Of a stretch of 64,000 nucleotides of DNA, positions 49,194 to 49,421 are shown in pieces. The stretch lies in the NCBI RefSeq assembly GCF_001677475.2, contig NZ_CP015229.1; one strand, 5' to 3'. The DNA is from Escherichia coli. Its GTDB lineage: Bacteria; Pseudomonadota; Gammaproteobacteria; Enterobacterales; Enterobacteriaceae. The position numbers and the translations under genes are program-made. A model generated the notes under the pieces. The model did no database searches. It was not told where the DNA came from and saw only the letters and a list, made by a program, of their open reading frames with translations. Position 1 is the stretch's first letter, and each line of letters starts with the position of its first letter.

Positions 49194-49197
49194 TCCA

Positions 49198-49385
49198 ATC
49201 CCACCTCTCCACATGGAGAAGGTGGGGCTTATTGCCTGATGCGCTACGCTTACCAGGCCTACAAAACAAAGCGCAGTTTGTTGAATTTGCACGTTCTTGT
49301 AGGCCGGATAAGGCGTTTACGCCGCATCCGGCGCGGCCCCTCTCCACATGGAGAGGGTTTGGGTGAGGGAAAAGCCTCACCCCAG
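49198..49385. repeat. Cluster of intergenic palindromes (two related CTCTCCACATGGAGA hairpins plus a REP pair)
   Basis: CCCACCTCTCCACATGGAGAAGGTGGGG (49198..49226); REP GCCTGATGCGCTACGCTTACCAGGCCTAC; REP GTAGGCCGGATAAGGCGTTTACGCCGCATCCGGCG; CCCCTCTCCACATGGAGAGGG and GGGTGAGGGAAAAGCCTCACCC (about 49337..49385). Confidence 0.8.
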
Positions 49386-49421
49386 CCCTCTCGGGTAAAA
49401 ACATTGATGAAGGTTAATACT

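Follow-up and report, generated by a model that had tools for sequence, protein, structure and literature searches.

Introduction

Repetitive extragenic palindromes (REPs), which combine into bacterial interspersed mosaic elements (BIMEs), are said to act as intercistronic mRNA stabilisers, as at malE-malF, and hairpins of the rpsO-pnp kind are processed by RNase III. The Y and Z types of REP and the classes BIME-1 and BIME-2 are defined by Ton-Hoang (2012). A further repeat goes by several names for one and the same element, namely BoxC, PIT, the purine-motif intrastrand triplex former TM_ECO (Holder 2015), and the quadruplex-hairpin motif HPG1/HPG2 (Kaplan 2016), and for about 30 years it has been left without an assigned function while being studied as a DNA triplex or quadruplex motif; its literature comprises Bergler 1992, Bachellier, Hoyne and Maher 2000, Holder 2015, and Kaplan 2016. 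The type A consensus of BoxC is CCCTCTCCC-loop-GGGAGAGGG-TTA-GGGTGAGGG, 23 copies are listed in K-12 (Holder 2015, Table 1), and palindromic pairs of types A and B (A+B pairs) have been described at five K-12 loci (Holder 2015). Here we analyse the 228-bp spacer between mtlA and mtlD (positions 49194-49421) in a 64,000-nucleotide stretch of Escherichia coli DNA (assembly GCF_001677475.2, contig NZ_CP015229.1; hereafter the window), in which a BIME and a BoxC-derived element stand side by side. With a probability of roughly 55%, we propose that the BoxC-derived structure is an intercistronic element that forms or stabilises mRNA ends, and that the BIME is a later, dispensable insertion.

An earlier reading of this DNA from its letters alone (the sequence-only reading) had reported in the spacer a REP pair, two related hairpins, and a third hairpin, and had suggested that they act as an mRNA processing or stability determinant setting the expression of mtlA against that of mtlD and mtlR, or as a binding site. 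An inverted-repeat search recovered each of these palindromes where it had been placed, i.e., the left hairpin, the REP pair, the perfect hairpin, and the GGGTGAGGG...CCTCACCC hairpin. RNA folding of the spacer, which that reading had named as a check, gave -103.8 kcal/mol as compared with -71.2 ± 4.5 kcal/mol for shuffled sequences (z = -7.25; 0 of 200 shuffles as stable), which is indicative of structure beyond that of shuffles.

The non-REP hairpins are a degenerate BoxC element

The right-hand part of the spacer shows the three-block layout of BoxC at 49338-49369 on the plus strand: the pyrimidine block Y1, CCCTCTCC (49338-49345), a loop ACAT, the purine block R1, GGAGAGGG (49350-49357), a TTT linker, and a third block R2, GGGTGAGGG (49361-49369), with block lengths of 8, 8, and 9 nt. 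As BoxC blocks we accepted Y CCCTCTCCC, a loop of 3-5 nt, R GGGAGAGGG, a linker of 2-3 nt, and R' GGGTGAGGG. Y1 and R1 form a perfect 8-bp hairpin (hairpin 1, 49338-49357), and a longer hairpin 2 (49351-49392, plus strand; an inverted repeat with 89% complementarity) pairs GAGAGGG-TTT-GGGTGAGG with CCTCACCC-CAG-CCCTCTC. The latter is built on the GGGTGAGGG...CCTCACCC hairpin of 49361-49382, whose outward extension is an 18-nt inverted repeat of 49351-49368 with 49375-49392, and the predicted long helix measures about 17-22 bp (9 + 8 bp plus 4-5 outer pairs). R1 has two possible partners, Y1 upstream or CCCTCTC (49386-49392) downstream; the minimum-energy and centroid structures choose different pairings of R1, and the two folds are near in energy.

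Two BoxC copies that were read directly in K-12, one upstream of fabI and the other between gcvP and ygfF, match this right-hand element, and the non-REP hairpins of 49338-49392 are a degenerate, type A-like BoxC (PIT/TM_ECO) element. The statement that the hairpin centred on CCACATGG is not a canonical REP is borne out, as it is the first hairpin of this element. In the distal arm CCTCACCCCAGCCCTCTC we recognise the inverted (type B-like) half, in truncated form, of a palindromic A+B pair. In K-12, the mtl spacer (3774195-3774423) is not among the 23 copies of Table 1 in Holder 2015, where the closest entries lie at 3781028-3781156 (K-12 lists of 25 copies by Hoyne and of 32 copies by Bachellier also exist, but the comparison was with Table 1); the mtl element is thus a degenerate member of the family that Holder (2015) did not list. 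By the sequence rule for purine-motif triplets (G*G:C, A*A:T, T*A:T), which is a sequence-based prediction, R2 can form 8 of 9 triplets with R1 in E. coli, where at least 7-8 were asked for. The count is 9 of 9 in Klebsiella, Enterobacter, Cedecea, and Siccibacter, and Cronobacter and Salmonella depart from the rule. We found no quadruplex motif of four G3 tracts in the E. coli mtl copy.

BoxC is a dispersed, multicopy family. In a scan of one genome per species, the matches listed for the core GAGAGGGTTWGGGTGAGGG came from more than 120 stretches in many phyla, including Pseudomonas, Boseaceae, Contendobacter, Deltaproteobacteria, Verrucomicrobia, Myxococcota, Elusimicrobia, and others, and in all of these listed matches the core was preceded by CCCCTC[T/G]CCC and a short loop. 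In a BLAST search of 5426 E. coli genomes, on the other hand, the right element, and likewise the hairpin copy at the left end of the spacer, hit one place per genome. We rejected such uniqueness as a test of family membership, because BLAST is blind to short diverged repeats that fall below the E-value limit of a 28-Gb search; the family was seen through the pattern scan and the literature. The sequence-only reading had named occurrence of the motif only here, together with transcript mapping that shows read-through and no processing site, as what would refute its suggestion; the exact motif is indeed unique to this E. coli locus, but as a test this would mislead, since the family spans phyla. 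This observation emphasizes a caution for annotation, as a motif unique to one locus may still be a member of a widespread family.

The 19-nt core is identical among distant phyla and is nested, genome by genome, in a longer genome-specific repeat. In Pseudomonas sp. dw_612 this repeat reads ATGTAGCTC..CTCGGTCAGTCCCCTCGCCCC-loop-GGGAGAGGGTTAGGGTGAGGGGTGG and has more than 30 copies, and in Boseaceae bacterium BT-24-1 the core has another right flank, ending in GACCCCTCATCC; Contendobacter was examined as well. These sequences suggest that BoxC is a conserved module carried by various elements resembling miniature inverted-repeat transposable elements.

An RNA 3' end maps just past the first BoxC hairpin

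Mapping of 3' ends was a second check named in the sequence-only reading, and published K-12 data supply it. The curated Term-seq list of Adams 2021 has a sense-strand RNA 3' end at 3774365(+), which maps to window position 49363, i.e., 6 nt past hairpin 1 and within the 5' arm of the long hairpin. A stable 3' end in vivo a few nucleotides past a stem is the mark of an exonuclease-blocking 3'-stabiliser hairpin, and hairpin 1, a candidate for this role, bears it. At three other BoxC copies, published Term-seq 3' ends were found 3, 4, and 10 nt past the hairpin (K-12 3781065(+) at lldD, 3959467(-) antisense to ilvC, and 632098(+), respectively), and 3'-end formation at the hairpin looks like a property of the BoxC family. 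The end antisense to ilvC has a high score (28044).

RNase III may have a part in making the mtl end. [quoted passage not shown] The site would require about 20 bp or more of double-stranded RNA and rnc-dependent cleavage, for which the locus offers the predicted helix and this weak peak. In an rnc-14 strain, the MtlD protein was raised 1.7-fold in exponential and 2.4-fold in stationary phase (proteomics of Huang 2020). No p19-captured double-stranded RNA has been reported in the spacer. As none of the other palindromic BoxC pairs appears among the entries listed from the table of Gordon 2017, we make no general claim of RNase III action on BoxC.

A discrete 3' end at a hairpin would also be expected of an attenuator inside the operon, in which the C-rich, G-poor arm CCTCACCCCAGCCCTCTC, the BIME, or both load Rho or pause polymerase, so that fewer polymerases reach mtlD-mtlR and the 3' end is a trimmed termination product. 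The arm is indeed C-rich and single-stranded in the predicted two-hairpin conformation, and Rho-dependent attenuation associated with BIMEs has reportedly been described. The Rho-dependent regions of Adams 2021 (DirectRNA-seq with and without bicyclomycin), however, lie inside mtlR and antisense to mtlD, and none is reported in the spacer. Furthermore, the spacer has no promoter consensus, so that transcription of mtlD and mtlR relies on polymerases reading through from the promoter of mtlA, and the untranslated gap of the ancestral-like allele is only 94 nt. We therefore regard attenuation as rather improbable.

The BoxC part is conserved in ten enterobacterial genera

We then compared the spacers of Citrobacter, Salmonella, Klebsiella, Enterobacter, Cronobacter, Cedecea, Siccibacter, Phytobacter, and Superficieibacter, and a partial one of Buttiauxella. 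In all nine other genera (ten including E. coli), the BoxC hairpin and the long hairpin recur, together with a similar leader, directly 5' of mtlD, and the Klebsiella orthologue is a near-perfect type A copy. The E. coli BIME was in none of the nine spacers, and the left hairpin copy was absent from the other genera where the whole spacer was available. Because the Klebsiella and Enterobacter spacers are 101-102 bp long and the other genera are free of the BIME, a 94-bp spacer form found in E. coli is best regarded as ancestral-like in length and layout. An 'E. coli' record with 93% MtlD identity (L131) was not taken as an outgroup for judging which allele is ancestral, as its mtlA and mtlR are fragmented and the assembly seems poor.

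Across 11 orthologues, 97.9% of the cells of the long hairpin were paired, as against 39-61% in slid controls. Four pairs change on both sides, e.g., Cronobacter GGGAAAGGG with CCCTTTCCC, by which the helix is kept and one triplet is lost. All of the non-Watson-Crick pairs retained are G·U on the sense strand, and since the tolerated wobbles are all of this kind, the comparison favours the sense mtl RNA as the structure probably under selection, rather than a DNA cruciform or an antisense RNA. Core and leader share 0.82-0.97 identity with E. coli in the spacers of Salmonella, Klebsiella, Enterobacter, and Superficieibacter; for Citrobacter and Phytobacter, longer apical loops bring the core down to 0.69 and 0.74, respectively, the leader being at 0.97 in both, and in Cronobacter, Cedecea, and Siccibacter both core and leader are much lower (0.39-0.69). 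The third codon positions of mtlD are 0.52-0.62 identical to E. coli in all nine genera, and the BoxC part appears to be conserved above these synonymous sites.

The conserved leader of mtlD, GGGTAAAAACATTGATGAAGGTTAATACT (49393-49421, plus strand), has its Shine-Dalgarno sequence GAAGG at 49409-49413. Its identity to E. coli is 84-97% in six of the nine genera, with the value of 97% shared by Salmonella, Citrobacter, Enterobacter, and Phytobacter, and is lower in Cedecea, Siccibacter, and Cronobacter (0.69, 0.66, and 0.39, respectively). A weak hairpin, AUUGAU/GUUAAU (49403-49418), holds this GAAGG in its loop; a G·U pair of E. coli is replaced there by A-U in Salmonella, Klebsiella, Citrobacter, and Phytobacter (ATTAAT), a change at a single position that fits the pairing.

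Repeats have landed independently just 5' of BoxC: E. coli has gained the BIME there, Citrobacter a single REP, and Cedecea a second BoxC in inverted orientation. In Citrobacter the REP-like palindrome GGCCCGATGGCGCTAGCGCTTATCGGGCC stands upstream of the BoxC hairpin (L132, 1058-1095), as does the stretch with the second BoxC in Cedecea (L137, 1034-1085). In the Salmonella spacer, the stop of mtlA and the BoxC hairpin are separated by an insert of about 130 bp (L133, 981-1110) that contains GTGAATCCCCAGGAGCGTACATAAGTACGTGACTGGGGTGAGCG and looks like an ERIC/IRU element, which would be a third repeat family at this spot. The short stretch 3' of the mtlA stop seems to be a recurrent landing site for repeats.

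Such repeated insertion is also what the main rival explanation would lead one to expect, in which BoxC is a selfish or neutral repeat of non-B DNA, prone to triplex or G-quadruplex formation, the BIME is a non-autonomous mobile element, and the locus is an instability hotspot whose RNA ends are incidental; Rho attenuation, stop-proximal control, and DNA-level binding are given smaller shares. The BIME of E. coli, the ERIC-like insert of Salmonella, the REP of Citrobacter, and the BoxC of Cedecea all arrived 5' of the element, the BIME varies in copy number, 8 of 9 triplets are kept in the E. coli BoxC, and Holder 2015 ties TM_ECO loci to rearrangements and finds no link to gene function or distance. 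The BoxC part itself, however, is stable here, being present in 99.6% of E. coli genomes and orthologous in ten genera, and it is conserved well above synonymous sites. Its substitutions keep Watson-Crick or G·U pairing on the sense strand, whereas the triplex rule is given up in Cronobacter and Salmonella, and the quadruplex motif is missing from the E. coli copy. On balance, we consider non-functional non-B DNA unlikely.

The polymorphic REP pair is a probable insertion between two hairpin copies

The middle of the spacer has the structure of a BIME, for which we looked for imperfect Y/Z palindromes, each about 35 nt long and bearing a GTAG/CTAC foot, that alternate in orientation and have a linker between them. 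Unit 1 is a Y-type REP, GCCTGATGCG...CAGGCCTACAA (49234-49264, plus strand), followed by a 32-nt long linker like the 'L' linker of BIME-1 (49265-49296; on the minus strand ATTCAACAAATTG in K-12 and ATTCAACAAACTG in the window) and by an inverted Z-type REP, TTGTAGGCCGGATAAGGCGTTTACGCCGCATCCGGC (49297-49332, minus strand), with TTGTAGGCCGGATAAGG...CGCATCCGGC as its palindrome; the assignment of types follows the classes of Ton-Hoang 2012. Owing to its REPs, the spacer hit a median of 22 places per genome by megablast, as is expected of a multicopy REP. To the left of the BIME stands the hairpin copy CCCACCTCTCC-ACAT-GGAGAAGGTGGG (49200-49226, plus strand; -20.9 kcal/mol, z -3.8), which has one bulged A, no third-strand block, and no triplex potential.

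The spacer alleles of E. coli differ only by the number of REP pairs and by the left hairpin copy. The 94-bp allele (O157:H7, strain E6474) has one hairpin, no REP, and no left copy; the 228/229-bp allele (window, strain 104, K-12) has one REP pair, the 318/319-bp allele two, and the 520-bp allele four, so that a tandem REP number varying between strains at one locus was read directly (0, 1, 2, and 4 pairs), and spacer spans that fit three pairs were also seen. In a sample of 60 spread records, 10 alleles were empty, about 31 had one pair, and the rest had several. The right BoxC element was found in 5405 of 5426 E. coli genomes (99.6%) and the left copy in 4388 of 5426, once per genome and at this locus only; the BIME is missing from about 19% of complete E. 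coli genomes. The REP pair is dispensable for the operon, as these genomes and all nine other genera lack the BIME.

Every REP-bearing allele has the BIME between two copies of CCCTCTCC-loop-GGAGA[G/A]GG-T..GGG, and for this reason the two hairpins are direct repeats around the insertion. When up to 2 mismatches were allowed, the motif CCCTCTCCNNNNGGAGAGGG was found at these two places and nowhere else in the 64 kb, where 0.01 occurrences would be expected; a pattern GGGTGAGGGNNNNNNCCTCACCC gave 0 matches in the window, which is uninformative because its loop was mis-specified (the real loop is 5 nt). The left copy reads GAAGAAGG in multi-pair alleles and is best read as a decaying, diverged duplicate of hairpin 1. 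The 'two copies' of the sequence-only reading are therefore both present, but instead of two functional units they make up a direct duplication around the BIME, of which the left, locus-specific copy is decaying. Their identical CCACATGG centre holds for the window and is allele-specific: the loop of the right hairpin (49346-49349) is ACAT in the window, as in the left one (49211-49214), whereas K-12 and most E. coli strains have TCAC there, and the window version of the right element occurs in about 449 of 5405 genomes (~8%). The shared ACAT looks like a short gene-conversion tract between the flanking repeats. The flanking duplication of about 25 bp is not expected of Y1-transposase-type mobility, because such mobility creates no target repeats (Ton-Hoang 2012).

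The left hairpin starts 6 nt past the mtlA stop codon, and a hairpin so placed could stall terminating ribosomes and lower MtlA output. REPs within 15 nt of stop codons reportedly have such an effect; in the O157 allele and in Enterobacter the hairpin lies 10 nt from the stop, and in Klebsiella it begins 15 nt into the called spacer. This distance is not conserved, however, as it grows to about 50 nt in Siccibacter and exceeds 80 nt in Cronobacter, Salmonella, and Phytobacter, and we find stop-proximal control improbable. The BIME might instead be a protein site at the level of DNA, with integration host factor (IHF) at the long linker and gyrase or DNA polymerase I at the REPs organising supercoiling between mtlA and mtlD. 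BIME-1 linkers often have an IHF site and BIMEs bind gyrase and DNA polymerase I (Ton-Hoang 2012), and the K-12 linker has its ATTCAACAAATTG. That motif, however, is degraded in the window (CTG for TTG) and missing from multi-pair alleles, and with the BIME lacking in about 19% of E. coli genomes and in all other genera examined, such a role is not required for the operon; of the explanations weighed here, we think this one very improbable.

A proposed two-layer model of the spacer

Beside the observed anatomy, family identities, polymorphism, conservation and covariation, and published 3'-end position, our preferred reading includes steps that we infer, namely the nuclease that makes the end, the effect on the MtlA:MtlD ratio, and the origin of the duplication. 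The old layer would be the BoxC-derived element of about 60 nt, immediately 5' of the mtlD leader. The sense mtlADR RNA would fold there either as hairpin 1 plus a short hairpin or as one helix of about 17-22 bp, and the stable 3' end, 6 nt past hairpin 1, could arise by a 3'-5' exonuclease stalling at the hairpin, by an RNase III cut in the 5' arm of the long helix, or by both. The mtlA message would then end in a protective hairpin while the mtlD-mtlR RNA kept an unprotected 5' end, and transporter levels would thereby be uncoupled from those of the dehydrogenase and the repressor. The young layer would be a Y-Z REP pair whose entry into the first BoxC hairpin took place within the lineage of E. 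coli, with duplication of about 25 bp of hairpin flanking it; the BIME would later have grown or shrunk to 0-4 or more pairs and would add at most further 3' hairpins to the mtlA RNA. The idea of an mRNA processing or stability determinant is accordingly retained for the BoxC hairpins, for which the Term-seq end, the weak rnc peak, the rise of MtlD, and the conservation speak, and given up for the REP pair and the duplication.

Several points weigh against this reading. The Term-seq end has a modest score (1285) and was found in one condition only (Adams 2021), which by file position we assign to the data set from LB at an optical density (OD) of 2.0. Among the entries covered, the table of Gordon 2017 has many similar low-count entries from the same chromosomal region, and the 72-read signal may be background. 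A 'Known? Yes' flag in that table was rejected as in vitro support for RNase III, as the primers used in vitro under the name 'mltD' fail to match the mtl locus. Many catabolic enzymes rise in rnc-14 alongside MtlD (Huang 2020), and Hoyne/Maher and Holder report no promoter, terminator, or expression effect of BoxC elements. The covariation is drawn from few lineages among 11 sequences, and part of the conservation could reflect a constraint on the whole BoxC family or conversion from other copies, as BoxC is kept across phyla.

The flag in question stands, in the part of Table S1 of Gordon 2017 that was covered, at an intergenic site 'id496-mtlD' marked as a known RNase III site, and the only known site of similar name in that paper is mltD (Lim 2014); the entry is probably a mix-up of the gene names mtlD and mltD in the published table.

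The formerly nameless hairpins of the mtl spacer now have a place in BoxC, a family found across bacterial phyla. This copy is unlike the published picture of unstable, functionless DNA, as it is fixed, orthologous in ten genera, pairing-preserving, and located at a mapped RNA 3' end; evidence of selection, along with a transcript phenotype, may here be available for a BoxC copy for the first time. We offer, tentatively and as a possibility more doubtful than our reading of the locus itself, that BoxC elements might act mainly as RNA, i.e., as compact hairpins that define and protect transcript 3' ends, and that the mtl copy, retained at one operon position across Enterobacteriaceae, has been domesticated, with alternative pairings of R1 (to Y1 or to the downstream CCCTCTC) and possible RNase III cleavage setting the ratio of transporter to dehydrogenase. 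The mtl spacer is a tractable test case for BoxC function, and its natural alleles with 0, 1, 2, and 4 REP pairs could separate the contribution of BoxC from that of the BIME.

Other features of the locus

The gene mtlA (47280-49193, plus strand; TAA stop at 49191-49193) encodes the mannitol phosphotransferase system protein IICBA of 637 aa, as read from the open reading frame (ORF) list and the RefSeq annotation of matching E. coli loci. The gene mtlD (49422-50570, plus strand; start ATG at 49422) encodes mannitol-1-phosphate 5-dehydrogenase (382 aa), and mtlR follows it in the window. By this stop and this start, the extent that had been given for the 228-bp spacer is correct. An ORF of 443 aa (49239-50570) extends mtlD upstream across the REPs and BoxC, and the protein database has a 443-aa 'mannitol-1-phosphate 5-dehydrogenase' entry from E. 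coli B354; because of the conserved Shine-Dalgarno sequence and ATG at 49409-49424, we judge this frame an artefact, almost certainly a misannotated start codon.

No terminator-like site was found on either strand of 49000-49600, where the hairpins are followed by TTTGGG or GGGTAAAAAC, and no sigma-70 promoter consensus in the spacer; a promoter or intrinsic-terminator role was rejected on these empty scans. An Rfam search of 48900-49700 (E ≤ 10) returned only chance microRNA matches and a sub-threshold match of the Z-type REP to naRNA4 (RF02564, a REP325-derived RNA), which at 39.1 bits is below the gathering score of 59.5 and does not make the spacer a member; the resemblance is shared REP sequence only. 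Rfam itself has no BoxC family. At the operon end (window about 50882, 50996, and 51156; K-12 3775884, 3775998, and 3776158), Adams 2021 lists three signals. Within mtlR, a region of Rho-dependent termination lies on the sense strand and a strong 3' end, scoring up to 107627, on the antisense strand; the convergent yibT transcript has its 3' end in the last mtlR codons.

Comparison with known systems

As in RNase III processing hairpins of the rpsO-pnp kind, the mtl spacer has a predicted helix of about 17-22 bp, an rnc-dependent read signal centred on the 5' arm, and a downstream product, MtlD, that is raised in the rnc mutant. It differs in that the mtl site is a candidate with a weak signal and with no p19-captured double-stranded RNA reported in the spacer. 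With REP/BIME stabilisers it shares inverted Y and Z REPs with a linker, located in the gap after a transporter gene; the K-12 and window allele resembles a single BIME-1, and other alleles are tandem and BIME-2-like, with a number that varies among strains. Unlike in those stabilisers, the mapped mtl RNA 3' end is downstream at the BoxC hairpin and not at the REPs, and copies of a direct repeat of about 25 bp stand on both sides of the mtl BIME.

The likeness to BoxC is one of parts and of setting. The mtl copy has the pyrimidine block, the loop, the complementary purine block, the 3-nt linker, and the mirror purine block GGGTGAGGG; it is intergenic, and it has an inverted partner arm as in the published pairs of types A and B. 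It departs from the described copies in having blocks of 8 rather than 9 nt, a linker TTT in place of TTA or CCG, a distal half truncated to CCTCACCCCAGCCCTCTC, and no canonical G3 quadruplex motif, and in being absent from the 23 copies of Holder. Rather than unstable, the mtl copy is fixed and orthologous between genera, and it lies inside an operon.

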